A program made the position numbers and the translations under genes. From assembly GCA_036172245.1 (NCBI GenBank), contig JAYWIR010000164.1:1-51458 (forward strand): DNA of 51,458 nt. The letters run 5' to 3'. The stretch's first letter is position 1. Every line of letters starts with the position of its first letter. The notes beneath the pieces were generated by a model. It searched no databases. It saw only the letters and a list, made by a program, of their open reading frames with translations, and had not been told where the DNA came from. Below, one piece after another: positions 1,747-48,974 of the stretch. Source of the DNA: Raillietiella orientalis. Its lineage: Eukaryota.

Positions 1747-1759
1747 AAAAGGGAAAGAC

Positions 1760-3560: not shown

Positions 3561-3624
3561 ACTCTATTCCACACTCAGTTTCTTCAGGATACCTTCCCTT
3601 TTCCGGCACACACGATCACAATTA

Positions 3625-12990: not shown

Positions 12991-13369
12991 GCCTTCCGCA
13001 AAAGTTTCTTTTGTATATCAGCTCAGAGACTTCAGAAACCACTTGTCAGTACATGCTTATGAGAGCAGCACCGGATCAAGCAGTGGATGGAAACATGCGA
13101 TACTAAGGCAAATTATTCAAAGATTCATCACATGCAAAGTGCAGATGCAAGACCGTGAAAGATAAAAAAAGAAAGGCAACAGAAGTTTGGTAGAAAGCCA
13201 GGGGACCCAATCTGGAGGGGGTTTGCGGATCTCGTTTTATCGCGAGACTCCAATACCCAAAGAAACGTAAGGAGGGACGAACCTACTCTTTTCTTACCAG
13301 GCGGTCACACGGGCTTCGAATTTTTGCTCAACAGCGATCGATATCAAGCATCTGAAGCTGAATCCTGCC

Positions 13370-16300
13370 TATCGACGTCTAGAAAAGTCCTCGAAAAGTG
13401 CCATCTTCGCAGGCGTTCTGCCTAACCCCAAATTTTGTCCAGCAGTGTTGCTGTCCAGATATTCCACTAGGGAAAACAGCATTGCATTGAAGGTAGTTTT
13501 CCTTGCCCTCGCTAGTTTTGGGGGATTCTCCAGGACCTCCCGGAGCGTCAGGCGGTCAATACGGGCGAAGAATTGTCTCTGTTCTTCTTGGGTGCGTTCC
13601 TGGTTGCTGCTTGCCCACGTCTGAGCCGTTTCCTGCAGCCATGCAGGTCCGTTAACGGGGCGACAGCAGAGCTATCCTGCGTTCTTCCTCATCAGATCAG
13701 CCACACTCCGCAACTGCAACCCGCAGTGACCAACTTGGCGGCGAAGACGGAGCGCAAGGAAGGATGACATTAACACCTTGCCTGTAGCCTTTTCAACGAG
13801 GAGACGTGCGGGCTCGCACTAGCTGCTATTCCAATATTTCGCCACTAGGGCCAGGAACCGAAACTGGAGCTAAAGCTCCAGCCGCTCTAGCGTCAGGAGG
13901 CCGATACCGCCGTCCCGACGCGGAGCACCCAAGTCCTCAAGCCGGATTCGCGCCCTCCCATTACCCCACAGGGCAATCCTTAGGAGGTCCTTTGTGCGCT
14001 TTTTAGTCTCTGTGCTGAAGGGGCAAACAAAAAGTAGTAAACGCAGAAGGGGAGCCGAAAACACGTTTTACACGGCGGCCGGTTCCGGAAGGAAAATCCT
14101 GCGGCCTTGGAACGGGCCGATCGCCGTCTCTACCTTCTGAAGAGAGCTGGACCACTCATCCGAAGGAAAATAATCCCCTATCGGTACACCGAGGTACTTG
14201 AAGTACCGTACCGTGGGGATCCCCAAACGGACCCAGTCCGGCTGCCCTACCCACGCCGCACCGATTGGCATGACGGACGACTTCGCACTGTGCACCTCAA
14301 TCCCGGTTCCCCGACTGAGCAGGTGGAAGAACTCCTCGAACGCCGATGTCGGGATGGACATAGGGAGCAGTAGCAGTAGGTCGTCTGCATATGCTGACAC
14401 CGCGGGCGTACTGGGATAGTCGCGTGGCAGGTGCGCTAGAGTTGTCCTGTACGCTCTCAGTACCAACACGAAGTAGCTACTGAAGAGCAAGGGACTCAGT
14501 CTGTCTCCCTGCCGTATGCCGCGTCGCACCGGTACGCCTTGCACGGTGTGTCCACTGAAAAAGATCCGGATAACCGCGTCGCGCCAGCAGGATCGCAGGT
14601 AGGTCAGCAAAGAGACCGGGAAACCCAAGCGTTCCAAGAGCTCCAGCAGGAGCTTCTGGTCGACACAGTCGAATGCTTTATGCAAATCGACGGCGACTGC
14701 GAGGGCTCCCTTCCACCCCCAACCATCCCGTTTTTTAAAATCGTAGATTCCGGAAGTCCGGTTGCCCATTCTGACCCTTTTCGGTTGGAGCGCGAAAAAG
14801 GTGCAGGCGAGGAACAGGTTGGCATTCATGCTCCGCCAGGGAACAGCATATGTCTGCTTCGGGCTGATGTAGCTTTCCGCTAATCGCCCCAGGCGTTCAG
14901 ACCTTAATTTCGCCAGCAACTTGGAGTCCGCGTTCATCACGGTAATCGGCCGTCATTGCTCATGCTTCGAAGTTCTCCTCCCTTAGGGAGGAGACGCACC
15001 TTTGCCGAACGTAACGAGGCTGGGACGTCGCCCGTTTCGCGGATCAGCAAGATGAGTTTTTTTATCAAGAGAGTGAGCTCTGCCGCAAAACCTTCAAAAA
15101 ATTCCGCTGGCAGGCCGTCCTTTCTTGAAGCCTTCCGCTTCTTAAGCTTTCTGATGGACGAGATGATCTCGCCCATCGTGAAAGGCTCGACGAGGCTCCT
15201 TTGATCTTAGTCCCCGATCGCCGGAGCGCCTTCCGGAAGAAGAAGTCGCGAGATGTCCCTTTCCGGTGGAGCGCGAGCCTAAAGGGAGAAGTAGAATTTT
15301 TTTAATAAGCCTTTCACCTGGGCGGAGGAGGAGTGCTCCGAGCCCTGGTCGTCCAGTAAGCTGCCCGACCCGGATTGCCACGCCTGCCACTTTGCTCTTG
15401 CAAGGTATTCGGCTAACCTGCATACATCTGGTGTTCGCGCGTAACATCGAGATTGTAAATACCATCTCTCGTTACGCACGCTTTCACAAAAGCCGGCAGG
15501 CAGGCGGTTCATAGGGAACTCGTTGCAAAACTCTTGGACCGAGCGCTTGAAACGGTCCCATTCCTGAAGCGTCTGCAAGCTGAAACCTCGTATGAATCCG
15601 CGGAGATGCTTCACGGCTTCCGGAAGTTTCAGCCAGTTTCGCGGTTAGCGCCACGCATATGACGGGGGACCCCTATCGCGTGGCCGTACCTCGAGTACGA
15701 TCCGGTCATGGTCCGAAAGTTCCTACGGTAACCTGCAGCGCCTGCCCACGCGTGAACATAGGTGCTGGTCAAGATACACGTGATCTATGCTGTCAGCGAT
15801 TTCCGGATCGCCGGCAAAAAAGTTGCGCGTATGTATCTCTGCTCACAGCTCGTTCACGCGGTCCCGAAGTGTGTGGGACGCATCCGACAGCAGGAGAAGG
15901 TTAAAGTCACCTTCGATTAGGTGCGCTTTGCGCACTCCCGCTTTGTCCAGATATTCGCGCCTCAGAGTAAGGAAGAAATCTCTCCTTGCCTTCTCCGCAA
16001 GCGCGTCGCTGCCGCATAAGCGCACAGGTTGGTAATGACCAGATCGATGGAGTCGGACCACCTGATGGTCAACTGGCGACGTGACCAGCACTATCGAACC
16101 TAACGCCTTTTGCCGCTACCTCGACCGCTGGACGAACCAGGAACGCGACACCGCAAGATTTAACGGTGCCGCAACGCCACATCAGCCGTCCACCCGAGAT
16201 ACGCTCGATCTCCGTTGCTTCGTCTGCGAAGATCACGTGGATCTCTTGCAGCAGCACCAGGTGAAACGATGTTAGGGTGGAGGCCACGTCTCGTCTCTTG

Positions 16301-18090
16301 CCGTCGTTGCTTAGTCCGTTGACGTTCCAACAGGCAATTCGCAGACGGCGGCAAGACGCGATTCTTGGCATTACGGCTGTGAACGTAGCGTTGCAGCAAC
16401 TGTCAAGGGACAGGTGGGAGGGACGAGTATGGGGACCAGGGCCATCTCAGGCACTTGAAGCACCTGGGGCACAGACTCTACCCTTTCCCTCCCTCCGGGG
16501 TCGCAGCGTGGGGTTAACTTTCGAGGAGAGTTCCCGGAGTTTCCCACTTCCTTCGCACCCTCGCTTTCCTCGATTATCTCTCCCTTTTCCACGGACGGAA
16601 TAATTTTGCGAGTAACCTTCTTTGTGCGACTTGCTTTCGAGCGGGAGGTTGCGATGCCGTAGGCTGTGTTTTCCGCCTGATCTTCAGAGATTGGAATCTC
16701 CGACTTCTTGATCGAGGTCGGACGCCTTAGGGCCTTTTTCGCGGATTTGGGGAAACGCTGCAAGGACACAGCGAGCTCCTGCGCCGCTCGCTAAAAGGCG
16801 ACGTCGTCGAGCATGCGTTCGTCGACGGACGCTACCGCCGGGTCGATAGCATCCGGCATTAATTTGCCGGAGGGCTGAAGGTCGGTAGCGACGAGTAGAA
16901 ATTTTGCCACTCTGTTCGACCGCATGAATGCGATTGATCACGACAGAGCAGCGTTTGTTCTTTTCGCTACGCTGGAAATTCTCGCTGCGTTTCGCGACTT
17001 TTTTTTTTGGTTCCTTGAGTTTTTTCTACTTACTGGATTTTACTACCTGCCATCCAAGTTTCTGGCCATTCTCCTCCACCATTTCCAAGTTTTCCGGGAT
17101 CTCGCAGCTGTCCTTTACCTGGGGCACGACAGTTGTTTTTTTAGTGGCTGCTCTATCTCGGACCTCCTGAACTTATAATTTTTTGGCCGCCTGCTTCTTT
17201 GCATTCCGTGCGGACGCGACGCGGACTTTATTTTGCGGGCACACCGGAAGAGTGTGCCTGGGTTGCTTACATTGCTTGCACTGCAAGTGGGGGCACCTTT
17301 TTTGCAGGTGACCTGAAGTGCTGCAATGCCCGCAGAAATACGGCTCATCAACATACCAGATGTCAATAGGTTCGCCGTTGACCTCCAGCTTGTTTGTTAA
17401 GGAGCAACCTTTGCGAACCGTTTATCGCGCGGAAGCCATACCGCAATTCAGGAGATCGTACTCCCAAAACGGAGTAGGCATTTTCCACAACGCGTGGACG
17501 GTTCCAAATTTAATTAATTCCTCTCTGACTGCCCCTTTGGCCTTTCGAAAGGTGAATCCGAGGAGGAAGATCACAATAGATCTATCCTTGTTGATTGGGA
17601 GGAGCCGGCGATTCCACAAAGGAACAGGTGAACGGAGCAGACACTGAGCAAGACTTGCTACTTTGGAAAACACCTCAACGTACTGTCCACTACTCCTGAT
17701 GGTCATCGCCAAGAGCTCCTTGTGGGGTACTTTGAGGGAGTGCATCGCTTTCGTGAAAGCGCACGCACTTTCAAAGGAGTAATGGTTCCCTACCTTATAG
17801 AGTAGAGGGGTATTGTAACCCTCCTAAAGGTAGGCTTTCAACTCTGCCGCAGCCGCTCGCGTTGGCCCTGAAGACACAGAAGTCTAGCTTGTCCCTAACA
17901 ATAGCTTATTTGGGGGCGGTTGCGTACACATCTATTAATTCTTGGGGCGAGATAGACGTGGATCCCTGCTTATCACAGGTGGTGGTCCCAGGCATTGCTG
18001 CCTTGCCATCACGGAATCCACTGAACACCAGAAAAGAAGAGAATAAAACCACAAACGCTCACGAGCGAAACAAAAACTGGTCCGCTCTCA
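13370..18090 (-). mobile_element. Family B (lineage Y) near full-length element: 5'UTR, ORF1, EN, RT; 3' end degraded
   Basis: 5' motif near 18075-18090; ORF1 pieces 17422-17745 and 16371-16769; EN WNVNG at 16069-16371; RT ORF 14068-14940 with DLHKAFD, RQGD, YADD and KYLG. Confidence 0.92.
14068..14940 (-). pseudogene. Reverse transcriptase core (uninterrupted 290 aa fragment of ORF2)
   Basis: AVDLHKAFD, GIRQGDRLSP, YADD, FKYLG. Confidence 0.93.
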
Positions 18091-18093
18091 AAC

Positions 18094-18490
18094 GCGGATT
18101 GGGACGATCTGAAAAGATCAGTCGGCGAGTTCTGTAGCCGGTTCCCCTTCCGCCTGCTCCCCCGTGGCTTCGGGGAAGGCGTGGCCAACAGCAGAAAGTT
18201 TCTGCAGGCCTGCTAATTCTTTCGATGCCCGGACTTTTGGAACCTTGCTGAGTTCAATGTCAAGGTCGAGCGCCAGGTCTGGCAGTCAGGAGCGGCTTGT
18301 CTGCTCGACGACCAAGGCCTGGAGTGCTCGGGCGCGGCCGACGTTCGCCGCCTACTAATGCTCTATTACTCCTCGTTGTATGCTAGGGAGTCAACAAAAC
18401 GCAGTCCTACGGAGCTCTGCAGGCGGATTCCTCTGCGTTCGAAGACGAGGAACGCGCCACTCTTGAATTGCCCTTCACGGAGGTAGAAGT
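18094..18490 (+). mobile_element. Family B (lineage X-like) ORF2 linker fragment
   Basis: Reads ADWDDLKRSV...LLDDQG...YYSSLYA...EERATLELPFT, matching 5155-5550. Confidence 0.8.
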
Positions 18491-21400
18491 GTCCCGCCGA
18501 GGAGGGCAAATCTCGAGCGGATCTCTGGACAGCATATGTGGTATAAATGTGGGAAATCTAGAAGTTGTGATGTTGCCTACCTGCTTCGGCCAGCCGTCGA
18601 GGCCGCGGCGCAAGGTGTGCGGTTCGACGATCACGGTCGTGTCGGCCAGCTGACTCTCAGGTGGACCGAATCTATCGATCCGATGGTCACGAACGTGTAC
18701 GCCACAAGCGGCGCGGACCTGACAAAAAGGAGGACGAGAAAAGAAACTTCACTTGCACTCCGGCGCGACTGGCTCACCCAAGCAGGCGTGCGAAATGCCC
18801 ATCTGGTTGCAGGGGATTTCAACGTTCGCCTGAAACCAGATGGGCAAAACCACGAGCGTGACCTGGTCAACGAGGTGCGCATGGCGGTGCACACCTGTAA
18901 TTTGCTGGCCGGTGCACCGGGGATGGAGGACAGTATCGACCAAGTGTTCCTTGATCAGCACCTGTGCCCTCGCGTGGGCAGGCGCGGCAAGTTACTGTGC
19001 GAGCTGTCCGACCAACGCCCGCTAATTCTCGAGATCCATCCGTGCCACAGGGGCAACCACTCTTCAGCGTGGCGTCTGCCAGGGGACTGGATGAAGCTTC
19101 TGGACGCGGCGGGACATCTCTGCACGTTCATACAGAGCACGAGACTGCGGACACTCCAGGATTGGGACCGCTTCAAGCGGTCGGTCAAGAAGTTCTAGGA
19201 CCAGTTCCATCTGAACCGACTACCTACGGGTTTCGGGACCGCGCTTCGCAACGAACGAGCTTATCTGCCGGCCCTTCGTTACGCCTGGAGCCTTGACATT
19301 CGCAGGCTGGCGCAATACAAAGCGGGAGGGAGAGGCAAGCCTCGCATTCCTGATCGGCCAGCATGCTGGCCGATCGGGGGTAAGAGCACTTGCACCCGCC
19401 CAAATCCGCAGCCTGCTACGGAGATTCCACTTCTCCCTGTACGCCAGGGAGTCTTCGGAGAGGAATCTCTCACGACTCCTGCTTCTGGAAGGTTCTCCTG
19501 CGATCGGAGAAAGGGGGAGAGAAAGACCCTCGACGAGCCTTTCACGATGAACGACATGCTCTCGGCCATCGGAAACCTCAAGAAGCTCAAGGCTACAGGG
19601 GTGCACGGCCTCCCTGCGGAGTTTTATTAAACTTTCGCGGCTGAGCTTACCTGCTTAATACAACTTCTCACCTTGCTGATACGCGAGAGAGGTTGTTCCC
19701 GCCTCGTTTCGTTCGTCCGAGGTGCGGCTCCTACGTAAGGGAGGAGACCTGAGCAGCATGAACTACTTGTGGCTCATCACACTAGTGATTGAGGACGCCA
19801 AGTTGCTAGCAAAGGTTTTGGCAGAGCGTCTAGTACGGTTTGGCAACATCTTCATGAGCCCGGAACAGACATATGCTGTTCCTGGGCGAATTATGGAGGG
19901 GAACCTGTTCCACTCTTCCACCTGGCTTGAGCTACAACATGAAAGGAGCTTGGTGCGCAGCAGGAATTCCGGTGCGTGTGCCGGCAAGGGGTTGGATGGT
20001 CGTGTGGGGGAGGGAGCCCTTGTTGTCGCAGTCGACTTGCGGAAAGCATTAGATTGTGTCGACCAGAATCTCCTCTGGAGCTTCTGAAACGCCTGACTTT
20101 CCCGGCCTTATTAGTAACCGATCTGAGCTCGAGCTGGCGTCACGTGCTCATCAGCGGTTTTTTCAGCGGGCATACCGTTCACGGCGTGCCAATGCGGAGA
20201 GGGATACGGCAGGGAGACATCCTGAGCCCCTTGCTCTTCAGAACCTACTTTGAGATGGTACTGTGAGCGTAGAGGGAATCTCTGGCTGACCTGATGCACG
20301 ACTATGCCGGTACGCCGGCCGTTTTAGCGTAGGCAAAATACCTTCTTCTGCTGCTTCCTATGTCCACCCCGGCTTCGGCAGTCGATGAGTTCCTCGACCT
20401 GCTGCATCGGAGAACCGGACTTACGTTGAACAGGGAGAAGTCGTATGTGATGCCAGTTGCTGCGGCTTGGGCAGGGTAGTAGGACTGGGTTCTTCCGGGA
20501 TCCTTACGGTGAGGTTCTTCCAGTACCTTCGTCTGCCGTTGATAAATTCCCCTCCTGCTAAATCCTGGTCCGGCTGCCTCCAGAATGTAAAGACGGCGAT
20601 CGGCCCGTTTTGAGAGGGCAGGTGTCTCCTGCCTGAACGAGGCGCGGTTTGGAACACGATCGTGGCTCCTCTTTCCCGCTCCTTGCTTGTTGTTTGCTCT
20701 TCCACAGAAAGAATTAAAGGACGGACAAAGGAACTTCTCCGTATCGCCCTTTGGGGCATCGGAAAAGCCAGACTCCGCTTAAAGGACTCTTGCGCTTCGC
20801 GTCGGGACGGTGGTCTCGGCCTCCTGACATTGGAGCTGCTGGAGCTTGAGCTCCAGTTCCTAATGTTGGCACTTGATCCAGAGTTGTGGTGCACCTGTAG
20901 GTGCGTCCCTGTACGTCTGCTACTCCAGCAGGCCGCCTGGAAGACGAGAGTCATGTCGTTTCTTGCAATCCGTCGCCGCGTCAACCGATGCGGTATCCAA
21001 GTGGCTGCGCTCAAACGAGAAAACCACGGATGGATCACCTGTCGTTCTACGAAAGGTAGTGCCTGGTTGTAAGAAAACCGTTCGCACGTGGGGACAGTGC
21101 GGCATGCATCGCTCCCAACAGGAACGAAGGTTCCTGTTTGGCGGTTACAGAAGTTTCACGCTCCGTGAGATTCTGGAGGATCCAAAGAAGATAGCGTGGG
21201 CAGGAAGAACTTCCCTTGATGCTGCGCTGCCCTGCTTGATGGAAGATCAGGACAGCGATTTTGCAACGAAGTGGGAGGTTAGGGTAACAATCTCTAAGAA
21301 GGAGAAGATGATAGAAGAGTGTAAGACTGGTCAGCTGACTGATGCTGCCACCCCGAATACGCCCTCCTATGGACTTGTACGCTCGGTTGCGCTGCTCGAC

Positions 21401-22138
21401 GTTCCCATTAAACGTCTGAAGTGGCCTATAATACTTATGAACACCTCCACCTTCCCCTTAAAATGGCAGGAGTGAGCTCTCTTGTTGCAGCACTTGGGAC
21501 TCCTCTGCAACTCCTGCAGACACCACATGACCTGGGGAGCGATGGACTCCAATTGTGTCAGGTGTGGGGAACGGGATTCTCTCCCTCACCTGCTAGTGGA
21601 TTGTGTTGCACTTCGACTATTTTGATTCCGCTTTAACGCGGCAATCGGAATATCTTGCGGCAACCCCAGGGACGTTCTGAAAGCCCACTTCGTGGCCGAT
21701 ACCCTTCAGCCAGCGGCCTCGTTAGCAGCCCTGTGCTGCTTACGCGTGATCCTCGCCGCCTGGAGCAAGGCAACGGGAGGACCACACAAACAGGTTGCCA
21801 TCCAACCAGCCTCTCAGTTCCTGAGGCGGGCGTCGCGATGGCCCCACCTGGGTCCATGCATGCAGCAACCGCTTGACGGCATTCTGCAGAGGATGCAAGT
21901 GCACCACCAGGTAAAGTGATCCCTTCCCGTACTCTCAAACTTTTTCTTTTCTTTTTTTGTTTTGTTCTTTGTCTTTCCCTCTCCCTCCTGCTGCCGTGGT
22001 GGCCCGTATTGGTCTGCAAACCGGTTACTCGGCAGTATCTGTGTTTATTCGTGCATGGATTGAGCAATGGTCCCGCAACTACACGTCTTTGTAAAAGTTA
22101 ATTGTTTTAATCAACGCCTTGCAAAAATCCGGGTAAAA
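18491..22138 (+). mobile_element. Family B (lineage Y) element, 3' part from mid-EN to 3' terminus
   Basis: EN ORF 18536-19198 (GDFN, SDQ); RT DLRKALD and RQGD; finger CVRCGERDSLPHLLVDC near 21555; terminal CCGGGTAAAA 22129-22138. Confidence 0.92.
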
Positions 22139-25100
22139 ATCGAATGCTTTATGCAAATTTACTGCTACTGGCAAGGCTGCCGGCCTTTTAGCCGTCCGTG
22201 CGCACCAGCGCTCGCAGTCGTCAGAAGGTGTTGCCGCTGTTCGGCTGTCCGCCGCAAAGCGCTCTTGCAGTTGCCACCAGGTTCGCGCGAAAAGAAGGTT
22301 CGCATCCATGGATCTGACCGGTACAGCGTAAGACTGCTCCAGGATTACCACGGAATCCGCGATTTTTCCTAAGCGCGTGACCCACAGCTTCGAAAAGTAC
22401 TTAAGGTCCGTATTGACTAACGTAATCGGACGCCAGTTGTTGAGTTGGCGCATATCTCCTCCTTTCGGAAGGAAACGCACCCTTGCTGAGCGGAAGGAAG
22501 AAGGGACATCGCCCGTCACCCTCATCAGCGTCGAGAGTCTAAGCACCAGTGGAGCGAGTTCAGCCGCGAAGCTCTGATAGAACAACGCGGGCAGCCCGTC
22601 CTCACCTGGCATCTTCCGTTTCTTGAGTCCTGCGATGGCGGAAGGAACTTCCTCCAACGAGAAGGGCTTGTCGAGACGGGCGCGTTCCTCCTCGCGGATG
22701 CCGTGTGCATTCCGCGGCACAAGCAGTTCCTAGAGGATTCCTTCCGTGGGGGATTTGGCGTAGAGCAAGGAGAAGTGACGCCTTAGTGTTCGCCGTTCTT
22801 CGGCAATAGGCGTGCATTCCCGTCCTTGGTCGTCGAGCAGAATAGCCGCTCCAGACTGTTAGATCTGATTCTCGGCTTTCGCCTTGTACTCTGCGAGGTG
22901 CCGGACTTCTGCAAGTCTAGAAAAGGTGCGCGCCTGCAGAAATTCTTTGCTATTGGCCACGCCTTCTCCAAAGCCGCTCGGGAGGAGGTGCAGGGGGAAC
23001 TGGTCGCAAAACTCGCGAACCGATCTTTGAAGATGTTCTTAGTGTGCGAAGTGCCGGAAGGCAAAGCCGCAAAAGAACTGGCAAAGATGCTCCGCCGCCT
23101 CCGGATAACTGAGCCAATCCGCGGGCATCCCTTGCTCGGCCGAAGTAGCTCGAACTCCAGCGTATCATGGTCCGAAAACGTGGACGGCACCCTGCCTCTC
23201 CTTACCACTCGTGTGAGTAGGTGTTCATCGAGGTAGACGTGATCCACGCACCTTTCAATTCCAGGCTCGTCGGCTATCATGTTACGCGCGAGCACTGATG
23301 CGTATGCCTCTTGCATCCGTGCAGGTTCCGCCAGCAAGCTCGTCTGGATGGAAAGCAGTTGGACGTTGAAGTCCTCTGCGACGAGATATGCAACTCTGAC
23401 TCCGTACATCCTGAGCCATTGGCTCTCCATCACGTCGAAGATGTTAATTTCGGTGCGCCGATGGAAGCCGCTCGGCGTGAAGACGTTCTTTAGGACATGG
23501 TGGAATGAATCTGACCATTTGAGTACAAGTTGGTCTTTTTCCCCCTCCTGGTCGTACGCTGCGCACTGCTCCCTCCATCCGACTATGAACGAGAGACCCG
23601 ACTCCGCACGATTGTGCAGCACCTTCTCGCCAGTACAGGGTGCTACCCGCGCGCAGTTAAATTTTGGAAACGTCCGCTTCGGACATGTAATGCAACTCTT
23701 GAAGGATCTCCAAGTCGAAGTGTCGCAGAGTGTCTGACACGCGACGCCTCTTTGCGTCCCAGCGCAGCCCGTTCACGTTCTAACAGGCTACGCTGAACCG
23801 ACCAAGAGAAGCGACTTCCTGCATCGAGGTTGGGAAGATGAGCACAGGTTTCTCGCTTTGTCAAGCGAGTGGTCTCGAGACAGAACGGAAGAACATGGAG
23901 ACTGGACATCTCCATTCGAAGCCGCCCTGCTTGTTGCCGGTAGCTCAGAGGTGAGGCCCATTCTCTTCTGTTTGCTCCCCGGCAACAGTTCCTATTCGGC
24001 AATTTCGCGCTTGCGGGTCTTCTGAAGGTGAATGCGCGGTTTCGAGCGGGATTCGCGCTGTGTGCTTATTCTGTCGGACTCTGCATTGGAATCCGACAGT
24101 CAGGCGCTTGCCAGGCGCTGCTTCTGTTTTTTGGAATCGGGGAAATCATTTGCTGCCTGTTTCCTAGCGCTTTCTGCTACTGCGGCTGGGACTTTCGTCC
24201 TTTTAGCCGCAGCAGCAGCTTCCTGCTCCATCCGCGAGAGGACGACTGCACAAGAGGAAAGAAGCGCAATCTTTATTTGGGATGGTTTTTTGGGTTTCTT
24301 CCGCACACTAACCTTCACACAGAGCTGCGAAGACATTGACGGTTTCTTTTAGATAACCTTTCTCACCAGCATTCAGCCGTCTTTCTTCGCGTCGCAGTTA
24401 TATTTGCTCTCCTGAGATGGCGCTGCGTCCGCGGATGTAAGAGGCGCTGCCTTGGCTGCCTCGTGAACTGCTGCCTCCGCGCAGGCGTAAGCAACTCCCT
24501 TAGCGATCGCGAGAGGCGCTGCCTCTTGCAGATCGGAGGATTCGCGCGTTTCCTTTGCGACCGCTTGAAGCACAGCTGTAGCGATTGTGCTCGCCCTAGC
24601 AGTTCCTTTCTTGGCCGCAGCAGGCGCTGCGTCTGCGCGCGAGGATTGCGGGTTATTAGGCTGTTTCGTCGCGTCACTCGGCGCCTGGGGCATCTTGGCC
24701 GCGGTAGGTTTAGCAGGCACGGATTTCTTTTTGGAGCGGGCGCGATTTTCCCCTATCGAGCGAGCGACCGCATTCCTACCACTTGCCGTGGCCTTCATAG
24801 GAGGCTTCGCGGTCGTGATGCCGACAGCAGGAGGCTTCTTGCCTTTCGGCGCACTCTGTCGTGCATTGCAAAATTCTCTGCGAGGTCTCGGTGAAATGTC
24901 GCATTTCACACGAGCTTCCGTCCGCTGGGAGGCCTGAGGCTTCGCCGAGACGCTTTTTTTCATGTTTTTCTCACCTTTCTTGTGGAGGGAAGAAAGGGTT
25001 TTCTGCGCACGTGCGCCCGCGGTTTTTGCAACGCTCTCCGAAGTTTTCAGGATTTTTTCCCTCGATTCGCAGCGTTTATTTCACGATGCGATACGCGCTT

Positions 25101-25984
25101 CGTTCTTTCGCTTTTCGATTTCCAAAAGGAGCTCCAGGCACGTCTCTTTTGTGTGCCCGGGCTCGTTGCAGTAACGTCACGCGGCCGTGGGACACTTCGT
25201 TAGGCGGTGACCCTCCTGTTCGCATTCTGAGCAGAGAAGCGTTTGCCTCGCAAACCACAGGTGGACTTTGATTCCATCCAACTGTAGTCGCGTGGGCATT
25301 TCCCGGCGAACCGCCATCGTCTGTCGCACCTGCGCGAACCCGCTGTGGTGTTGTTCGAAACGCTCAGCAGAATTTGGCAACCTCCAAAGCGCGTGAACGA
25401 AAGCAAATTTTTTAAGGGCCTCCACGTCCTGGCGGTTCGAAAGACCCTTGCTCACTCCACTCAGCCGGACAACGAACAACTGATCCGTAGTGGTGAGGAG
25501 TATTTCCTGCCCTCGAATGAGCAGCGGCGTGGACAGCAAACGCTGCCGAAGGAGAGCGTCCTTAGTGGACACCTCCCGGAAGCCGCACCCACTCATGGGC
25601 ATGTTAAACTCCAGCTGATCTCTCTGAACTTAAATCCGTCGGAGTTCCTGGCCAAACTCGCGCCCAATCCGCTCAGGCATAAGAACACTTACCTCATATC
25701 TGTGTGCAGGCGTGTAGCCATTTGCTACCTACGTCTGCGGCTCAGGGTTGTCGGGAGAAGGTCCCATTGTGGCCGCGAGGGCAGCGACCTGGGCGAACTT
25801 CCTCGCCGTCGGCGAGGACAGTGGCTCCTTGCAAGCAGCAGAAATTGCCATCTCAGGAGCAGGAACGGTTCCCTTCTTGCGGCTGATATACTTCTTTGCT
25901 CCCATTGCAGCACAGAAGCACAGCAGAACAGAAACACAAAAGATTCAGCCTACCGCGGAGCGACGCAAAGCACGTCCGCACGCG
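22139..25984 (-). mobile_element. Family B (lineage X-like) element, 5' part: 5'UTR, ORF1, EN, linker, RT up to LHKAFD
   Basis: ORF1 CSECEQEGHRLTKC (25177-25602); EN EDFN and SDH (22783-23622); RT PGEDG, WRPITL and NLHKAFD, cut at 22139. Confidence 0.92.
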
Positions 25985-25987
25985 ACC

Positions 25988-28434
25988 GGCGCGGATGCGG
26001 GAGAAGGGAGATGTTTTCGCATCTTTCCGCTTAGCAAAGGTGCGGCTCCTGCCGAAAGCCGGAGATTTGCGCCACCTCAGCAACCAGTATTCGATCATCT
26101 TAATGAATTCAAACGTCAAGTTGTCCTACAAACTTTGGGTCGCGCGGCTGGGGAGAATCGCAGCGTCCTTGGTAAGTCCGGTGCCGAAGTATGCTGTTCC
26201 TGGGCGGTCCATGGACGCGAATCTCTTCTTCGCGCGAACATGGTTCGAGTTGGAGCAGCGCGTTGAGCAGCAGAGTCAGGCAACCGAAATCGCCGCTGCC
26301 AAAGGTAAGCGGCGATGTTCAAGGCACGATGGAACCCCAAGGTCCTTAGCGGTCAACGTGGATCTCAGCAAATCGTTCGACAGCGTAAACCAGGACCTCC
26401 TTCTTGAGCTTCTGGGACGCCTAGGCATCTCGACCCACCTTATCGACTACTAATGCTCCTGCCGGCGCCACGCGTTCTGCTGTATCTCTTTCAGCGGGCG
26501 TCACGTGTACGGCGTCCCAATACGGCGGGGTATCATGCAGGGAGACAGCCTAAGTTCCCTGCTCTTTAGCATTTTCATTGAGTTGGTGCTGAGGTCGTAC
26601 AGGCTGACGTTGGCCAATCTGCCGAGCTCCTGCACGGGAATACCGGCCGTGGTCGACTATGCTGACGACCTTCTCCTGAAGCTGCCCATGTCTACCTTGT
26701 CGTCCAGGCTCGAGGACTTCTTCGAGCTCATTCGTCGTGGAGCAGGCTTGACCGTCAACAGGACGAAATCAACCTTTGTACCGGTTGGCTCTACGTGGGA
26801 GGGGCAGTCCGACTGGATCCGGCTGTGAATCTTCACGGACAGGTGCTTTAAGTACCTTGGCGTTCCGTTGGGCGCATTCTGTTTAGCATAAGCGTGGTAG
26901 GACTGCCTTTACAAGGCTGAGACTGCTCTCGGCCCGTTCCAAGGAGTCAGGTTCTTCCTGTCGGAACAAGCCTTCGTGTGGATCAATCTCGTTGCCCCCT
27001 TCTCCGTCCCCTCTTCTTTGTTTGTCTCCCTCCGTACTCGGCAGAGCGGCGGTCGCAACGCTTGTTGCGGAACGCCTTGTGGGGAACGCCGAGGTCTAGT
27101 ATCCGCCTTAAGGACTTGGCTGCTCCTCGTCGGGATGCAGGATTGGGCATCATGACGTTGGAGGGGATCAGACTGCTAGTGGAGTTCCGCATGCGGGCAC
27201 TTTGTGCGGAGCTCTGTACCACTCCCTGGTGTGCTGCAGCGCGGCTGCTGCTGCGGAGTTAAAAGATTGGTGACGCACTTCTTTAGCAGCACCTACGTAC
27301 GGAGCGCGTCAATGAGAGGATTTGGCATCACTGTGAGGCAGCTCGCCTAGCTTATAGGAACGTATTCATGGAAGTCCTGCCTGCCGACGAACATTAACTC
27401 TTATAGTTAGGAAGCTTTATCCTCCTGGGCAGCGCAACAGGATGTATGCCGTTTGGAACTCCGTTGCGTGAACCTTTCCCCATACTTTCCAGTGGGGGAG
27501 GTGCTGGAAGACCAGGACATGTGGACACGCCTAGCCGCTACGCCACTCGCCGAAGCACTGTCTGCACTGATGTTGCGAGACGACAGTGACCTGCCGGCGA
27601 GCAAGGAGGTCGCTTGCTACATCGCAGGCGAAACCCAACTTCTGGAAGGCTGGCGGACTTCCAAAGTGGCAGACGCTGCCACACTTCGCCTTCGTGCCAA
27701 GGGACTTCTCCGGTGGAACGAGCACCTCGGGGTGCCCACCGATAAACTTGCGGTCCCATCTGCGTGTTTGGACGCGACTCTCTTCCCCCTTTCGTTGGAA
27801 ACAGGACGCTTTTCTGCTTTTGCATTAGAGTTTGTACTGCAACGAGCGCGCGCAACTGGTTTCCGTTAAAGTTGCGTCCCCGAACTCTGCCAAGTATGGA
27901 GCGGTGGAATCGCTTCCGCATTTGCTGTTTGAATGCAATGCCTTCCAGGAGCTCTGGCGGTGGCCGTCTTCAGCTATCTCACCCTGGACACATCGCACTG
28001 GATTGGATGCGTTGCTTCTACACGCGTGGCGGTCTTTCTCTTGAAGCGGTCGTCGCACCCATCTGTTGCGTCCGCGCCGTTGTCAGGGCCTGCCATGCAT
28101 TGCACATGCGAGCAGTCCCATCATCGGTCCCCGACACAGCAGCCTGCAACCTGCAAATGTCTGCCGGGTGGCCAGAACTGGAGGCAGAGGTGAGGACGGA
28201 GATCGGCCGCATTTACCGCTGGTTCTCAGAATAGAAACGGTTGAACTGCATACCCCTTTACCCGGCCTCCCTCTCAATTTATTTATTCATTGTCCCTTCC
28301 CTCTCGTGTTCCGAACTCTCAGTATGCCCTGCCTGCGTTCCGGTAAATCTATACCCCATCTTCTGTTCCCCTTTCCTGGGAACACAGTTCCCAGATGAGA
28401 TTATAAATAAACGTCCCGGCGAAACCGGGTAATA
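25988..28434 (+). mobile_element. Family B element, 3' part from RT start to 3' terminus
   Basis: VRLLPK, DLSKSFD, MQGD, YADD (26505 ORF), ESLPHLLFEC; AATAAA 28406-28411 and perfect CCCGG-CGAAA-CCGGG 28415-28429. Confidence 0.92.
28406..28434 (+). promoter_or_regulatory. Conserved 3'-terminal signal of family B: AATAAA-CG-Y-CCCGG-N5/6-CCGGG-TRANA (best copy)
   Basis: Related copies at 8238-8266, 22109-22138, 31324-31352, 33745-33770 (+) and 45325-45354 (-). Confidence 0.8.
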
Positions 28435-29257
28435 AACGACAACGCTGCATTTTTTAATCTGTTTGCTTGCCTGCTCTTTTTTCTGGTGGTACGCGAGCTT
28501 TTTCTGCAATCTTATCTCCTTCTTACTCTTTTTGGCTGTTTTCACCTGTCATCCAGGGTCTTGGTCGTTTCCTTTGACCTTTTCGCCGGTTTCTCGTATA
28601 CGGCCTGAGCCTTGTGCGCTGCTGGCGTAGCCTTCGCGGCAGCTTTCGCCTCCAGCCTTTTCTGAAGCAACCGGTCGCGTTTTTTAAGTTTCCTTTTCGA
28701 AACCACACCCACTGCTACTTTTGGGCACACCTCTCGCGTGTTATCCATTTTCCCACATACTTGGCACTGCACGCTGGGGCACCTCTTTTCGAGGTGAACG
28801 GAATTATTGCAGAAGCCACAGTATTTGGTCTTCCCCACATACCAGAGGTCGATTCACTCTCTCCACCACCAGTTTGGATGGAGAGTGGAGCCCTTCCGAA
28901 CGTTTAGGCGTGCAGCTATGGGGTCGTGTTGCAATCTCGTGTAGTCCTCAGAAGGACTAACTTACCACCACTGCGCATGGACTGTTTTAAATTGCTCTAG
29001 CGCGGCGCGAGCCTGTTTTTCACGCAATTGGGCGGTAACGCCTCACAGACAAACTACCATGCTGCGATCCACCGAAATGAGGAGGAGCCGCATCCAGGCT
29101 CTCCATGGCCTCTGGTGGCGGCGCTGTTGCTGCCCACTGGGCATTCCTGGTGGTCGCGTCAGGCATCGCTTTCTGATCGATCACCAAACCACACGACGCT
29201 AGCACTAGGGGAGACTTCCTTGCAAAAGAAGCACCGAGAAAACATGTCCGCCCTACA
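28435..29257 (-). mobile_element. Family B (lineage Y) element, 5' part: 5'UTR and internally deleted ORF1 with two knuckles
   Basis: CGFCNNSVHLEKRC and CQVCGKMDNTREVC; KKLAYHQKKEQ...CSVVV cut at 28435; 5' motif near 29240-29257. Confidence 0.85.
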
Positions 29258-29258
29258 G

Positions 29259-31352
29259 CGCACAAGGCGTTCGACTGCATTATCCAGGAATTCTTTCTTG
29301 CGCTACTGTGACACCTAGGTCTCCCAGCGCATCTCGTCGACTACTTGCGATCCTGCTGGCACCACAAGTTATGCTGTATCTCTTTCGGCATTCGTCACGT
29401 GTACGGCGTTTCCATACCGCGGCACATCAGGCAGAAACAGTTCCAGCCCAATGATCTTCAACATCTTTGAGTTGCTGCTGAGGGTGTACGGTATTACGCT
29501 TACCAACTTGCCGAACTCCTGCCGTGGAACTCCGGCTGTGGCCGGCTATGCTTACGACCTAGTCCTTTTGTTCTCCATGTTTACTCTGACGTGCAGGCTC
29601 GAAGACTTCATCGAGCTCATCCGCGGAGGAACGGTCCTGAGCGCCAACTGCACGAAATACACCGTTAAACCGGGTGGCTCTACGTGAGTGGGGCAGTCCG
29701 ACTGGATTTTCCTGGGGATCCCCACGGCCTGGTGCTTTGAAAAGCTTTGTGTTTCCTTGGGTGCCTTCTATCCAGCAGAAGCGTGGTAGAACTGTCTATA
29801 CATGGACGAGACTACTTTGGGCCCGTACCAAGACGGAAGGATACTCCTATCGCAACGAGCCATCGTGTGGAACATTTTCGTTACCGCCCTCCTTCGTCCG
29901 TTATTTTTTGTATGTCCCTCTCTCTACCCGGCTAAGCGTGGGGCATAACGCTGTTTGCGGACCACCTTGTGGTGACCAGCAAGGTACAGGTTCCGCCACA
30001 AGAACTTGGTGGATTCTCGACGGGATGCCGGCTTGGGCATTCTGCTTCTGGAGTGCATCGGATTGTTAGTGCAGATCAGCATTCTGACACTTTCTTCCTA
30101 GCTTTGGACGACTTCCCGGTGTGCTTCAGCGCGTCTGCTGCTGCGGCGTTGCAAGTGTGGTGACGCACTTCTTTCGCAGCACCTACGTACGGAGCACGTC
30201 ATGAGAGGCTTCGGCTTTACTGTAAGGCAGCTCGCCTCGCTTCTGGGAACGCATTCATGGAACTCTTGCCTGCCGACGAACATTAACTCCTACAGTCAGG
30301 AAGCCATATCGTCCTGGGTAGCGCAACAGGATGTGTCCCGTTTGGAACTCCGTTGCGTCAACCTTTCCTTATTTTGTCCAGTGGGTAAGTGTTGAAAGTG
30401 TAAGCCAGGACAAGAGGATGCTCCCATCCGCTATGCCCCTAGCCGGAGCGCTGTCTGTCTTAATGGTGCGTGACGACTGTGACCTACCAACAAGGTGGGA
30501 GTCCGTTCGCGCTATCGCAGAGGTAATGCGGCTTCTGGGCGGAGGGAGGGCCTGCGAGCTTCGAGACGCTGCCACGCAACTTATTTGTGCCAAAGGACTT
30601 CTCCGGTAGAGCGAGGTCCTCGAGGTGCCCGCCGAAGAATTTTTGGTCCCTTCTCCGTGCATAGGGGCGATTGTGTTCCCTCTTCCGTGGAAGCAGGACG
30701 CTTTTCTGTTGGTGCATTGGGGTTTGTTTTGCAACCAGCGCGCGTACATGGTTTGCGGTAGAGTCGCGTCCCCGAACTGTGTAGACAACGGAGCGCTGGA
30801 ATCGCTACCGCATCTGCTATTTGAGTGTGGTGCACTCCAGGAGCTGTGGCGGTCGCTGGCCTTAACTCTCCTGCACCAAGGGGACACCGCAAGAGACCTG
30901 ATGCGCTGCTTCTTCACGCCAGGCGGCCGGTTTTTACGTTCCGTCATCGCAACGCTCTGTTGCACCCGCGCCATCGACAGGACCCACGGAGAGCTGAAGA
31001 AGCTCCATATTCTTCGTCAACCTACCGGAATAGCCAACACGATCATGTCGTCGGCTTCCGATAGGGCCCCTCTTTCAGTGGACGTTAGGAGCGAGATCGC
31101 CGGCATCCTTAGCAGGTTCTGAAAGAAAGGAACTGCCAAATCAAAGACCTCTGTCCTTAAGCTCTTAAATCTTTATTTATGTTTTTGATATGTATTTTTG
31201 TGGTCCCTTCCCTCCCATTCCAGACTTGCGGTATACCGACATGTTTATTATAGCGCGCCCGGGTTCCCCGCATCGTTTCTCCTGTATCTTTTGTTCGGGA
31301 ACTCTGTTCCTGGATAGTTTATACATAAACGACTAGGCGCATCCGGGTGACA
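29259..31352 (+). mobile_element. Family B element, 3' part from RT HKAFD to 3' terminus
   Basis: HKAFDC starts at 29261; degenerate YAYD near 29548; ESLPHLLFEC (30625 ORF); terminal CCGGGTGACA 31343-31352. Confidence 0.9.
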
Positions 31353-31955
31353 AACACCTGATTCCCCGCGATAGCTTCTATCTCCTTGTCGTCCACTGCG
31401 GTGATCGTGTGGATCTCCTGCAGCAGGGTCAGTTCGATGTCACGCATAATGTCGCCCTGAACTGTTCTGTTGCCGTCGTCGCGCAGCAAGTTGACATTCC
31501 ATTAGGCGACGAGGATCCAACGGCGACAGGAGAGTCCAGGTGTTGCTGCTGGGACATCATCGCTGCGGCGACTGCCACCAATTGGGGACGAACGCTGGGA
31601 GGAGGAAGGAGGTGCTTGGAGCACCTGGTTTCCCTCCCTCATCAGTGCAGGCTCGTCAGCCAGTTGCCCGAAGGTGGGGTCGCGCCTACCTGTGCGCCCC
31701 CATCCATGTCCGCGGGCTGTTCAGTATCGGCGTCTGCAGGGGGGATTCCGTCCCCCTGCTAACCCTCATTAATCGGGGTGGCCTGCTAGGCGGCTGCCGA
31801 GCGTGGAAGATCCCTCTCCGGGATTCCCACAATGGTGACGGATTCAGCTTTCCCCTTCTCGCTCGTCCACGGAAGGAGTGTTCTAGATTTTCGGGACTTG
31901 AGTCCCGCACGCTCGGTGGTGTCTCCGAGGAAGAGTGGCTGAAGGTAGGCAATGT
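31353..31955 (-). mobile_element. Family B fragment: ORF1 C-terminus and EN start
   Basis: WNVN near 31490-31501; LTLLQEIHTITAVDDKEIEAIAGNQV cut at 31353; TGATG at 31555-31559. Confidence 0.8.
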
Positions 31956-31959
31956 GCCG

Positions 31960-33770
31960 GTCTCCTGTCCTGGTATACCGGTCGAGGCAGCCTAGGCCGT
32001 CAACCTCCTTCTCCTGATACCAACGTCTAACCCGGCGGCAGCGCTTGAAATTTTCCTTGAGTTGAACCGTCGCGGAGCGGGCGTGAGCGTCAACAGGAGC
32101 AAGTGCATGGTTGTTCCGGTGGGAGCGACGTGGAAGGCGCACTTCGACTGGATATTCTGGGGGATCCCCACCTCATAGGCGCAGGTACATTAAGTACCTT
32201 GGCGTGCCTTCGGGCGTCTACTCCGTCGCTAAAGCGTTCTCAGACTGCCTTCGGAAGAAAGAGAGTGCACTTGTCCCGTTTGCCGGTAGCATGTTTGACA
32301 TGCCGGAACGGGACAGCATATATGACACCTTCGTTGTTTCCCTCCCATGCCCCGTGTTTTTTGTCTGTCCACCCCCCAAAAAGTCCAAGTCTGGGCGCAG
32401 AGACTTCTACTCAAAGCGTTGTGGGGCGGTGCAAGGTCTCGTATGAGACTTAAAGACTTGGTGGAGCCACGTCAGGTTCCAGGTTTGTGCACCCTCGACA
32501 TAAACAGCGTCAAGCTAGACGTGCAGTTTCAAATGCTGCGGCTCTGTGCAAAGCTGTGCTGTACACCATGATGCTCACCCGCTCGCCTTAAACTAAGGCT
32601 CTGCATGGGTAGCGAGGCACGGCTTTCGTTGCGGTTCCACTTTTGGCACATCAGAATAGGGTTTGGCCTCCCGTTGAGGCAGCTGTCCTCACTGCTGGAA
32701 GTACAATGTTGGATCTCCTGCCGCCCCATGTACATTGCTGCATATCGGCAGAAATTGTTTGAATCGTGAGCAGCTTCCGAAGAAACGCGGCCGGAAGATC
32801 TTCGGCGCCTGCGACTTCTCCACAGCCATTCAATGGACAAAGTCATGGAGGACACGAAGAAGTCGGATCGTCTGGCCGCCACACCACTCTCCGCGACGCT
32901 GTCTGCCCTCAGGACAATCAACGACAGTTGCCTGTCGGCGAAATTGGACTTCTCCAGTACAATAGCATGAGTCAGCAAGCACCTCGGCGGCAGGACAACT
33001 AAGGAGCTGGTGGAAACTTCCACTCCTCGGAATGGGGCGCAGGGCCTGCTTCTGTAAAGCGAACATTCAATTGTGCCCCCGAAGATACGGGGGTTCCCCC
33101 TGTTAGTTTGGATAGCTCCGTGTTCATCTTAAAGTGGAAACAAGATCTGCTACTCGTTTTACACTCGATCTTTCACTGTAATCGGCAGCGAAGCATCGTT
33201 TCCGGGGGAGCTGCTTTGCCAAACTGTTTGAGTGGCGGAGAGATCGAGTCTTTTCCGCACCTCTTGCTGGACCGCAGTGACCTATGTGAACTGTGGCGAG
33301 GGTCGATTTCAGCCATCCTGCCGCCGGGAGGCACTCCCATTGATGTGCTGCTACGCTTCTTCAGCAGGAATGGATTTTCGGTAGGCGCGATTGTAGCAGC
33401 CATGTGTTGCCTTCGCTGTATCGTAAAGACTTCCTACGCCCTGGAGTTCTCAGTGCAGAGAAGGGAGGCTCACCTGCTTGCAGGTGAATCCATAGGAAAG
33501 CCTGCAAGGTGTCATCATGTTCGTGCTGAGGTAAAGTAGGACATCACCGGCACGCACCCCTTGTTTACAGACTAGAGAACGGCGTAATCCGGTGAACCCT
33601 GCGACCTCTAGGCCAATTAGTATTTTATCCCGGGCTACGTACTAGGAGAAATCTCTTTATCATTTTCACGTCGTCAGTTGGGTGGCTGTTTCCGGACTGC
33701 TTTATTTTTTATAGTTGTTTTTTCGTGTTCATATTTTATGGAACCTAAGCCCCGGCTTCACCGGGTAAGA
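31960..33770 (+). mobile_element. Family B (lineage X) element, 3' part from the RT YADD region to 3' terminus; close relative of 6310-8266
   Basis: GVSVNRSKCMVVPVG and IKYLG; 33108 ORF closely resembles the 7432 ORF; CCCGG-CTTCA-CCGGG 33751-33765. Confidence 0.9.
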
Positions 33771-34795
33771 AATCTACCATGTGTGATCTAAGGAGATCAC
33801 GTGGATCTCCTACAGCAGCACTAGGTCGAAATATGCCAGGAAGGCGTTCCCGTCTCGACTCTTGCTCTCGTCCCTCCGCCCGTTTACGTTCCAACAGGAG
33901 ATAAGTAGACCACGGCGAGAGGCGATTCCCGGCATTATGGCTGGAAAAGTGGCGTCGCTTCACTTGCATTGTAGCAGGTGTTGTCGAAGTTCATGGATTG
34001 GACGGCCGCGTCAGACACTCTAGTAACCTGCAGCACGGCCTCAGCCCCCTCAATGTCCTCCGTTTTACGTTTGTCAGGTGGCAGGTCCCGGCAATTTCCT
34101 ACGCTCATTGCGCCCTCAGTTCTGGAAGCCATCTTTTCCATTTCTACGGATGAAGCGTTCTTCCGAGGATTCGTGGAATTCCGTTTGATTTTTCAGGGGG
34201 ATGCCGTGGCAATGGATGCTTGGAGTGCGAGATCTCAAAACTATTTTTACACGCGTGCCACCACAAGGTCTTTTGAGTCACGTTGGAAGGTCGCTACAAC
34301 AATGGAGCGAGCTCCTCGGTCGCTCGCTCCTGAGCAACGACATGGAGTTCACGTTTGATGATGAACGCCGCATCGCTACCCTCCTTGTTTACTTTGTCAT
34401 CGGTGGTTTGAACGCTGGCAGCAGCGAGTTCATGTGTGTCGCACTCGTCGATGCCTGTAATCTCCTCAGCTACCGCGCGGCAACTTCTAGTTATTTCACA
34501 TCGCGGCGCGTATTCGACCCGTTCCGCGACGTTGTCTACTTTTTTATATTTTTTGGAGTTGACCACAGATCAACCTGGCTTTTCGCTGTTGCCCAAATCC
34601 TGTTCGGCGTTTTCAGCCGGCGTCCCGGAGATGGACTCCGGCTTGGTGGCGGAGGTTGCCTCATTAGCTGAAGCTAGAGCTGCTAACTTTTTCCTTTTCC
34701 TTGCCGCGTGCTTCGTCGCGTTTCGAGCGGACAGGACAGTGACCGAATTTTGGGGCACATCCGCCGAGTGTGTGCGATTGGTTCTTTTCAAGTAA
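33771..34795 (-). mobile_element. Family B (lineage Y) fragment: ORF1 C-terminus and EN start
   Basis: TEGAMSVGNCRD resembles the 8428 and 16371 ORFs; TAATG 33933-33937; WNVNG and FDLVLL*EIHVIS. Confidence 0.85.
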
Positions 34796-41497: not shown

Positions 41498-41600
41498 CAA
41501 ATGTGCACGTGGAAATACATTTCTCGAATGATCTCTTGAGGAACACATACAACTAGGTCTGTCTGCATTTTGTAAACAAATGTGCATTTTTTGCTGCACG
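41498..41600 (-). pseudogene. Possible degenerate SWIM zinc-finger remnant (MULE-type transposase or host gene relic)
   Basis: SCMCSSRDHSRNVFPRAH resembles CxC-x(n)-PCxH with the third Cys codon as CGT; motif only. Confidence 0.3.
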
Positions 41601-48970: not shown

Positions 48971-48974
48971 TCGT

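Follow-up and report, generated by a model that had tools for sequence, protein, structure and literature searches.

Introduction

Long interspersed nuclear elements (LINEs) with a specific target are known for ribosomal DNA (rDNA), small nuclear RNA genes, telomeric repeats, microsatellites and one DNA transposon. The R1 and R2 elements target 28S rDNA; within the L1/Tx1 group, Tx1L inserts into the Tx1D transposon, and Keno, Kibi, Koshi and Mutsu insert into RNA genes or microsatellites. An orientation fixed by the asymmetric target is the rule for R1, R2, TRAS/SART and Tx1L. Self-nesting LINEs are also known, namely Zepp and Cnl1, which form centromeric or subtelomeric arrays; Zepp and ZeppL form one cluster per chromosome, at the centromere, and Zepp ends in poly(A). 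According to the accessible portions of the respective reports, Zepp and ZeppL of green algae such as Coccomyxa and Chlamydomonas are L1-type LINEs that insert into their own copies and form dense clusters (PMC8226300; PMC9940879; bioRxiv 10.1101/2025.03.28.645958), the Zepp nests are tandem arrays of 3' ends (PMC8226300), no antisense alternation is mentioned for the Chlamydomonas clusters (PMC9940879; bioRxiv 10.1101/2025.03.28.645958), and Cnl1 of Cryptococcus is a non-LTR element (one that has no long terminal repeats) that accumulates in subtelomeric arrays of its own copies (bioRxiv 10.1101/2021.08.11.455996). Here we describe a stretch of 51,458 nucleotides (nt) from Raillietiella orientalis (positions 1 to 51,458 of contig JAYWIR010000164.1, assembly GCA_036172245.1; in the following, the window), in which pieces of L1/Tx1-like retrotransposons follow one another on alternating strands, and we propose that these elements were probably inserted, one into another, at specific sites on the sense strand of older relatives.

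Results

Strand alternation and element termini

The alternation of strand among the LINE pieces of the window is confirmed; it lies well above chance, and is stronger than had been stated in the original prediction, an earlier reading of this DNA. The pieces were mapped by tblastn with the open reading frames (ORFs) 1 and 2 of the window itself, using the best-preserved copy as a protein ruler (ORF2 at 48997-45438, minus strand; ORF1 at 49083-50381, plus strand). The element coordinates of each piece, given as R1 coordinates, came from sensitive blastn comparisons of the window with itself and with a reference copy, here called copy R1 (the reverse complement of 13300-18300). The gaps remaining between the pieces were searched by tblastx, and the boundaries were set by junction alignments. 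With the ruler ORFs, tblastn located about 20 LINE pieces, which group in three clusters (1-9230, 13291-34795 and 42194-51458). They are listed here in order of position, together with the short stretches between them; the letters X, K, W, Y and Z denote junction sites, which are described in the next section.

1-3694, minus strand: L, the 5' portion of a divergent LINE that runs past the left end of the window, with reverse transcriptase (RT), apurinic/apyrimidinic endonuclease (APE) and ORF1 zinc knuckle (Pfam RVT_1, Exo_endo_phos and zf-CCHC; tblastn with ORF2, query positions 10-516, at 31-1590, and with ORF1 at 2240-2530).
3695-8267, plus strand: A, an element of family A, whose 3' terminus (8267) joins e9 at site X.
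8268-9230, minus strand: e9, an antisense 5' piece reaching from site X into the ORF1 C-terminal region, placed by blastn to R1 coordinates 2078 down to 1222 and by alignments; outermost piece of the first cluster, with DNA devoid of LINE similarity beyond.
13291-18089, minus strand: copy R1, near-complete, with ORF1 and ORF2, the 5' motif at 18074-18085 and sites X and K uncut; its 3' end at 13291 is tentative.
18090-18494, plus strand: a fragment of family-A-like ORF2 (R1 coordinates about 2737-3140), with its left end at site W.
18495-18506: a filler of 12 bases between the fragment and B1, matching neither neighbour.
18507-22139, plus strand: B1, an element of family B, from site X (about 9 nt past the presumed nick) to a 3' terminus joining P2 at site K.
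22140-25981, minus strand: P2, family-A-like, between site K and an authentic 5' terminus whose motif is at 25968-25979.
25982-28435, plus strand: P3, from R1 coordinate about 3253 (site Z) to a 3' terminus joining P4 at site Y.
28436-29253, minus strand: P4, between site Y, in the C-terminal region of ORF1, and an authentic 5' terminus whose motif is at 29240-29251.
29254-29258: a filler of 5 nt between P4 and P5, matching neither neighbour.
29259-31353, plus strand: P5, starting 17 nt upstream of the presumed nick at site K, with the KAFD codons kept; its 3' terminus joins P6 close to site X.
31354-31577, minus strand: P6, a short antisense piece of the APE N-terminus (R1 coordinates 2108 down to 1896).
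31578-31936: no assignable match on comparison with the pieces (best z 3.5).
31937-33771, plus strand: P7, an element of family A, 76-81% identical to A, from R1 coordinate about 3860 to a 3' terminus joining P8 at site X.
33772 to about 34795, minus strand: P8, antisense, from site X to the ORF1 zinc knuckle; outermost piece of the second cluster, with DNA devoid of LINE similarity beyond.
42194-43626, plus strand: T42, a family-A-like 5' portion, cut at site W; its left flank is devoid of LINE similarity.
43627-44190, minus strand: N43, a 3' portion, whose decayed 3' terminus (43627) joins T42 at site W.
44191-44733, within the third cluster: not assignable to any element piece by tblastx of the gaps.
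44734-45324, plus strand: T44, an RT fragment (R1 coordinate about 3048 to site K), the target of B2.
45325-48977, minus strand: B2, the best-preserved element of family B, whose 3' terminus (45325) joins T44 at site K and whose other end lies 18 nt past the presumed nick at site X (48960-48977).
48978-50185, plus strand: E49, with a 5' terminus (motif at 48980-48991) and ORF1 with CCHC knuckle; at site X it adjoins B2, and its cut is close to the C-terminus of ORF1.
50186-51458, minus strand: D, the ORF2 C-terminal zinc-finger region of a divergent family, which runs off the window; its 3' terminus at 50186 is tentative.

Of the 15 LINE-LINE pairs in direct contact, 14 change strand; only the fragment and B1 do not, both being on the plus strand. 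By our own arithmetic, the probability of at least 14 changes in 15 under a 50:50 null is about 0.0005. The eight consecutive pieces of alternating strand that had been predicted were mapped as B1(+), P2(-), P3(+), P4(-), P5(+), P6(-), P7(+) and P8(-) over 18507-34795. As had also been claimed, each plus piece (B1, P3, P5 and P7) ends at an authentic 3' terminus against a minus piece, and P2 and P4 end at authentic 5' termini against plus pieces. The same pattern was found again in the first cluster (L-, A+, e9-) and, in mirror form, at 44734-51458 (T44+, B2-, E49+, D-), where it had been anticipated, and the junction of T42(+) with N43(-) at 43626/43627 adds an antisense junction that had been overlooked. 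A correction is needed for 8283-9206 and 28436-28630, which had been read as 3' tails of plus-strand elements and are actually antisense 5' pieces.

All families have in common a 3' end of the form ..AAACG..CCGGGT-R-A-R-A-A, without poly(A). On this basis, seven 3' termini are firm (8267, 22139, 28435, 31353 and 33771 on the plus strand; 43627 and 45325 on the minus strand) and two are tentative (50186 and 13291, both on the minus strand). At the 5' end, the motif G-N-GCRGAC-N-W-G-Y-TT has four exact matches, at 18074-18085, 25968-25979 and 29240-29251 on the minus strand and at 48980-48991 on the plus strand. In line with the original prediction, which concerned the recognisable family-B 3' termini and the recognisable 5' termini, a relative on the opposite strand adjoins all seven firm 3' termini, the tentative one at 50186 and all four motif-bearing 5' termini; it does not adjoin the tentative terminus at 13291. 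A 5-bp stem (CCCGG/CCGGG) folds in three of the seven firm 3' ends, and 3' hairpin folding of the seven ends gave no significant z-score.

It is hardly conceivable that random insertion in a dense LINE field produced this arrangement by luck. The sample is indeed small and comes from one window; however, the number of strand changes argues against such an origin, and so does the coincidence, to the nucleotide, of two pairs of independent junctions in elements of about 5 kb.

Recurring target sites

When junctions and uncut copies were aligned, each of them read on the antisense strand, a small number of recurring positions emerged. At site K, the tails of B1 and B2 pass into an antisense RT at the same base, right after the D codon of 'KAFD'. 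At site X, A and P7 join an antisense APE 11 codons after 'LLQEIH', the two junctions matching to the nucleotide, and the 3' terminus of P5 enters an antisense APE about 25 nt from this site. At site W, the 3' junction of N43 in T42 and the left end of the fragment at 18090 are within 3-6 nt of each other, and site Y, in the ORF1 C-terminal region, is represented by a single instance, the junction of P3 with P4. Read on the sense strand, the inferred nicks have the contexts GAT^CG (X), GAT^TG (K), CGC^TG (W) and CGT^CG (Y). Family A is found at X in both of its copies (2/2) and family B at K in both of its own (2/2). According to our own count from the junction alignments, the window has nine X sites and nine K sites, of which five and three, respectively, are broken at the site or beside it. 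The sequence A-T-C or A-C-C comes straight after the A-rich tail at five of the seven firm junctions.

These sites also bear on the possibility that the alternation is secondary, the product of inversions and deletions between inverted copies after ordinary random nesting in a region rich in LINEs. In keeping with such a history, the clusters are decayed and of old age, and every model has to assume at least two deletions. Nevertheless, the breakpoints of rearrangements would be expected inside homologous stretches and not at authentic termini, whereas the firm 3' termini (7/7) and the motif-bearing 5' termini (4/4) lie exactly at strand switches, and independent copies use the same target base. 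We therefore regard this explanation as very improbable.

Independence of the insertion events

Before their junction, B1 and B2 show 79-83% identity in each of seven 500-nt blocks; over the 460-480 nt after it, the identity is 59%. Likewise, A and P7 show 76-81% identity in each of four blocks before their junction, and the identity between their hosts, e9 and P8, is 60-66% beyond it. This drop of identity at the junction means that the hosts come from different families, and therefore that the junctions arose separately. The original prediction had named copies of one duplicated composite as the finding that would overturn it; for the two testable pairs, B1/B2 and A/P7, such an origin is excluded.

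For the window as a whole, a duplicated composite, or an artefact of assembly through mis-joined repeats, appears extremely unlikely. It is true that B1 and B2 have in common both the 5' break at X and the 3' junction at K, as copies of a composite would. However, the fall in identity (from about 80% to about 59% for B1/B2, and from 76-81% to 60-66% for A/P7) occurs exactly at the junctions, and the neighbours on the X side differ, being a same-strand fragment beside B1 and the 5' terminus of E49 beside B2. As to the assembly, identities among the copies are no more than 56-83%; with no pair of pieces above about 83% identity, there is nothing to collapse, and therefore no reason for the assembler to mis-join them.

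5' junctions and the staggered cut

P5 keeps 17 nt before the presumed K nick (29259-29275) and lies against the 5' terminus of P4 across the 5-nt filler. B2 continues for 18 nt past the presumed X nick (48960-48977), as far as the 5' terminus of E49, which it adjoins directly. Overlaps of this kind would be expected as target-site duplications from a staggered second-strand cut, and free cDNA ends would not be expected to give them. B1 is also broken at X, about 9 nt past the nick. The remaining two 5' junctions, whose R1 coordinates are about 3253 and about 2737, have A-T-C 15-19 nt upstream on the antisense strand, which was noticed post hoc and is weak evidence; the start of P7 (R1 coordinate about 3860) has no such feature.

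The 5' junctions are also the place to consider twin priming or serial template switching, according to which a single event of retrotransposition or repair would have given rise to each (-,+) pair, or to the whole array. In such an event, the RT itself, or a second primer, would jump onto the LINE RNA and copy it to the 5' end, leaving inverted 5' pieces with no true nesting and hence a single arm. This would account for the fact that minus pieces end at authentic 5' termini and plus pieces at 3' termini, which are the ends of the template. It would also account for the absence of a second arm, with a complete-looking minus-strand element at the left edge beside DNA devoid of LINE similarity, and for the 5'-to-5' meeting of L(-) and A(+) at 3694/3695. 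In addition, around site K the identity of copy R1 with B2 goes up, from 58-68% to 78-83%, which could mark a chimera.

We nevertheless consider this explanation unlikely. Classical twin priming requires one RNA source and a shared breakpoint, but the overlap between P2 and P3, of about 360 nt, is only 66-70% identical. In P4/P5 and P6/P7, distances of about 2.2 kb and about 1.8 kb, respectively, in element coordinates separate the end of the visible minus piece from the start of the plus piece, although this argument is weakened by the fact that the original extent of the minus piece is hidden by the next insertion. With regard to the contiguity of E49 and B2 under twin priming, it should be noted that E49 is truncated by D, which cuts it at 50185/50186. 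Moreover, the 17- and 18-nt overlaps fall exactly at sites that serve other copies as 3' junctions, and the shift in the identity of copy R1 appears to track general conservation, the identity of R1 with A rising in the same windows.

A stricter variant, a mosaic model in which the cleaved top strand would prime on LINE RNA by homologous annealing, predicts one source element for the K-to-X part of P2 and the 3' part of copy R1. It was tried and rejected: P2 is family-A-like, being 65-75% identical to A and 49-60% to R1, and the 3' part of R1 is B-like.

The 3' part of copy R1 and the start of family A

Copy R1 is devoid of about 740-900 nt of the 3' region present in family B. At 13291-13450, its similarity to family B stops about 900 nt before the B 3' end, and a weak copy of the 3' end motif only is found about 130 nt past that point. 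Either part of the interior was deleted here, or this is where the deletion that took the other arm of the nest has its breakpoint.

A (3695) and T42 (42194), both on the plus strand and family-A-like, start at the identical element position; the start of A adjoins the 5' end of another LINE, and that of T42 adjoins DNA devoid of LINE similarity. Family A may have its own 5' terminus and be without most of ORF1.

Identity of the elements and their relatives

Pfam RVT_1, Exo_endo_phos and zf-CCHC were found on stop-to-stop frames of both strands, RVT_1 with E=6.7e-20 on 46637-47749(-) and zf-CCHC in 49083-50381(+) and 2480-3013(-). The tblastn matches place APE before RT in ORF2, and ORF1 and ORF2 are colinear in copy R1. 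An L1-type CxxC...H....C finger is seen in the translations of the ORF2 C-terminus, although the Pfam domain zf-RVT was not detected there. Judging from this set and order of domains, rather than from an RT tree, the pieces are classed as decayed L1/Tx1-like non-LTR retrotransposons. All the LINE copies in the window are old and decayed.

In the protein database, the only close relative is P0060, an uninterrupted sequence of 619 aa encoded on a 2870-nt JGI contig, which is 72% identical to the family-B RT; all other protein matches are at most 33% identical, and come from animals and plants with an L1-like domain set. Because P0060 is this similar, living relatives probably exist. Among metagenome contigs, a scan by protein alignment matched 265 pattern stretches, none of which encodes a relative. 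A search of these contigs for the exact 19-mer spanning the family-B tail and site K gave 20 loci, where about 15 chance matches were expected by a rough estimate, and none of the 20 carries LINE ORF1 or ORF2 by tblastn.

The remainder of the window

The window looks like eukaryotic DNA, has a G+C content of 40-58% and is without long open frames. The spacers between the clusters (9231-13290 and 34796-42193) show no LINE similarity by tblastx of the gaps, and their G+C content is lower than that of the clusters. An inverted repeat of about 560 nt (36736-37295 and 38534-39093, 81-82% identity) lies inside the second spacer; it might stem from an inverted duplication, or mark both ends of a further mobile element. 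In the first spacer, 12444-13106 is rich in G+C and open on both strands (220 aa on the plus strand, 168 aa on the minus strand); neither Pfam nor a comparison with the LINE pieces gave a match for it. A string resembling a tRNA T-arm occurs nearby, where ARAGORN calls no tRNA; the ARAGORN scan of the whole window gave no tRNA genes.

Discussion

The clusters were probably built by target-specific target-primed reverse transcription (TPRT) into the sense strand of older relatives, which would fix the antisense orientation and build nests. From the termini, orientation, recurring sites, independence of events and 17-18 nt overlaps observed, the nick itself, the order of events and the manner of site recognition can be proposed as follows. 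The endonuclease would nick the sense strand of a resident copy at X, K, W or Y, and the 3' OH of the nick would prime cDNA synthesis on the incoming RNA; since the cDNA would be primed from a sense-strand nick, the insert would lie antisense to its host. A second-strand cut about 17-18 bp off would give rise to a target-site duplication, and repeated insertions, each into the previous insert, would result in strand-alternating nest arms. The sites could be recognised through a sequence preference of the endonuclease. Alternatively, or in addition, the 3' end of the RNA or a read-through tail could pair with the nicked strand; a pairing of the RNA 3' end or read-through sequence with the target is known for the R1 elements of rDNA. 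Both modes of recognition would be compatible with the family-specific addresses and with the A-T-C or A-C-C after the tail at five of the seven firm junctions.

A number of observations weigh against this reading. The second arm of the nest at 18507-34795 is not in the window; to the left of B1 there is a same-strand fragment of 400 nt, then the unbroken copy R1(-) and then DNA devoid of LINE similarity. The tentative 3' terminus of that copy, at 13291(-), adjoins DNA without LINE similarity. The overlaps on the 5' side vary (about 17, 18, 9 and 3-6 nt), the starts of two plus pieces (R1 coordinates about 3253 and about 3860) have no second instance, and the 3' junctions at sites Y and W, unlike the others, have no A-T-C following the tail. 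Stop codons per aligned codon relative to P0060, a crude proxy of decay, reveal no age gradient toward the centre of the nest (B1, 10/582; P2, 2/278; P3, 8/512; P5, 6/371; P7, 3/298), and B1, supposedly the youngest copy, is no cleaner than the others. Finally, all the evidence comes from one window of 51 kb.

If the nest had two arms, the missing one implies at least one large deletion, together with a small one at 18494/18507. The large deletion could be a recombination between two minus-strand copies, leaving a chimeric copy R1. The rise of identity between R1 and B2 near K may reflect conservation alone, because the identity between R1 and A rises in the same windows.

What had been predicted about the origin of the pattern was therefore upheld in part. 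Serial antisense insertion is supported by the recurring homologous sites, the authentic termini and the 17-18 nt overlaps, but neither a second arm nor an age gradient accompanies them. Of the two-armed nests with matching duplications that had been suggested, the 17- and 18-nt overlaps at two 5' junctions were found, and the other arm of the nest at 18507-34795 was not found in the window. The expected decrease of divergence toward the nest centre was not seen with the stop-codon proxy, and an 'obligate' antisense orientation is not a claim that one window allows, the more so with the tentative terminus at 13291. The single arm, the absent age gradient and the single-window basis leave serial nested insertion the best-supported explanation, but an unproven one.

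A more far-reaching idea, which we put forward only tentatively and think rather doubtful, is that the families home on the sense strand of conserved coding positions in LINEs of the same superfamily, family A by LLQEIH of the APE and family B at KAFD of the RT, partly guided by RNA-DNA pairing and with antisense orientation being obligatory. Guidance might be given by a read-through 3' tail pairing with the nicked sense strand, or by an R-loop between the element RNA and a resident copy's antisense strand. If this were true, every new copy would disable an older one, so that the retrotransposon would both parasitise and police its own kind, and the target motifs would be ones that active elements cannot mutate away.

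Target-specific antisense insertion as such, if true, would represent a new kind of 'safe haven', namely fixed coding positions of relatives, always on the opposite strand. It would account for the compactness of such clusters, create dense convergent and antisense transcription units as natural sources of small RNAs, and offer a simple, testable system of endonuclease/TPRT specificity with several addresses. Should the pattern prove random genome-wide, the window would merely contain an odd local cluster.

We know of no earlier LINE whose target is its own catalytic-domain coding sequence. In full-text literature searches, neither antisense, strand-alternating self-insertion of LINEs nor targeting of coding sites on the opposite strand was found to be reported; the original Zepp paper (Higashiyama 1997) is outside this coverage.

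The comparison with described systems can be drawn for four cases. The 5' inversion of L1 elements is reportedly due to twin priming, as proposed by Ostertag and Kazazian in 2001. As in a twin-primed L1, an inverted 5' segment stands in the window head-to-head with a direct 3' segment that reaches the element tail; unlike in a twin-primed L1, the partners P2 and P3 are not contiguous parts of one RNA, those in P4/P5 and P6/P7 appear not to be, and the strand switches fall at sites used by other copies for 3' insertion.

Zepp and ZeppL resemble the elements of the window in their self-nesting. However, in contrast to the tandem arrays of 3' ends described in the accessible part of the Zepp report, the strand alternates here from one piece to the next, and the junctions lie at defined internal coding sites. 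Moreover, where Zepp has its poly(A), the elements of the window end in ..CCGGGT-R-A-R-A-A with the target sequence directly after. Cnl1 also piles up in its own copies, but neither antisense alternation nor coding-motif targets are reported in the accessible portion of its description (bioRxiv 10.1101/2021.08.11.455996).

In the mode of insertion, the elements resemble the target-specific LINEs of the L1/Tx1 group and R1/R2. As in these, APE and RT are present, the same target nucleotide is reused (K by B1 and B2, X by A and P7) in a fixed, here antisense, orientation, there is no long poly(A), and precision is high at the 3' junction and lower at the 5' junction. Unlike in the L1/Tx1 group and R1/R2, the targets of the elements in the window are coding positions of related LINEs, including the genes of their own family, entered in antisense, and several sites (X, K, W and Y) are used, apparently in a family-specific manner.

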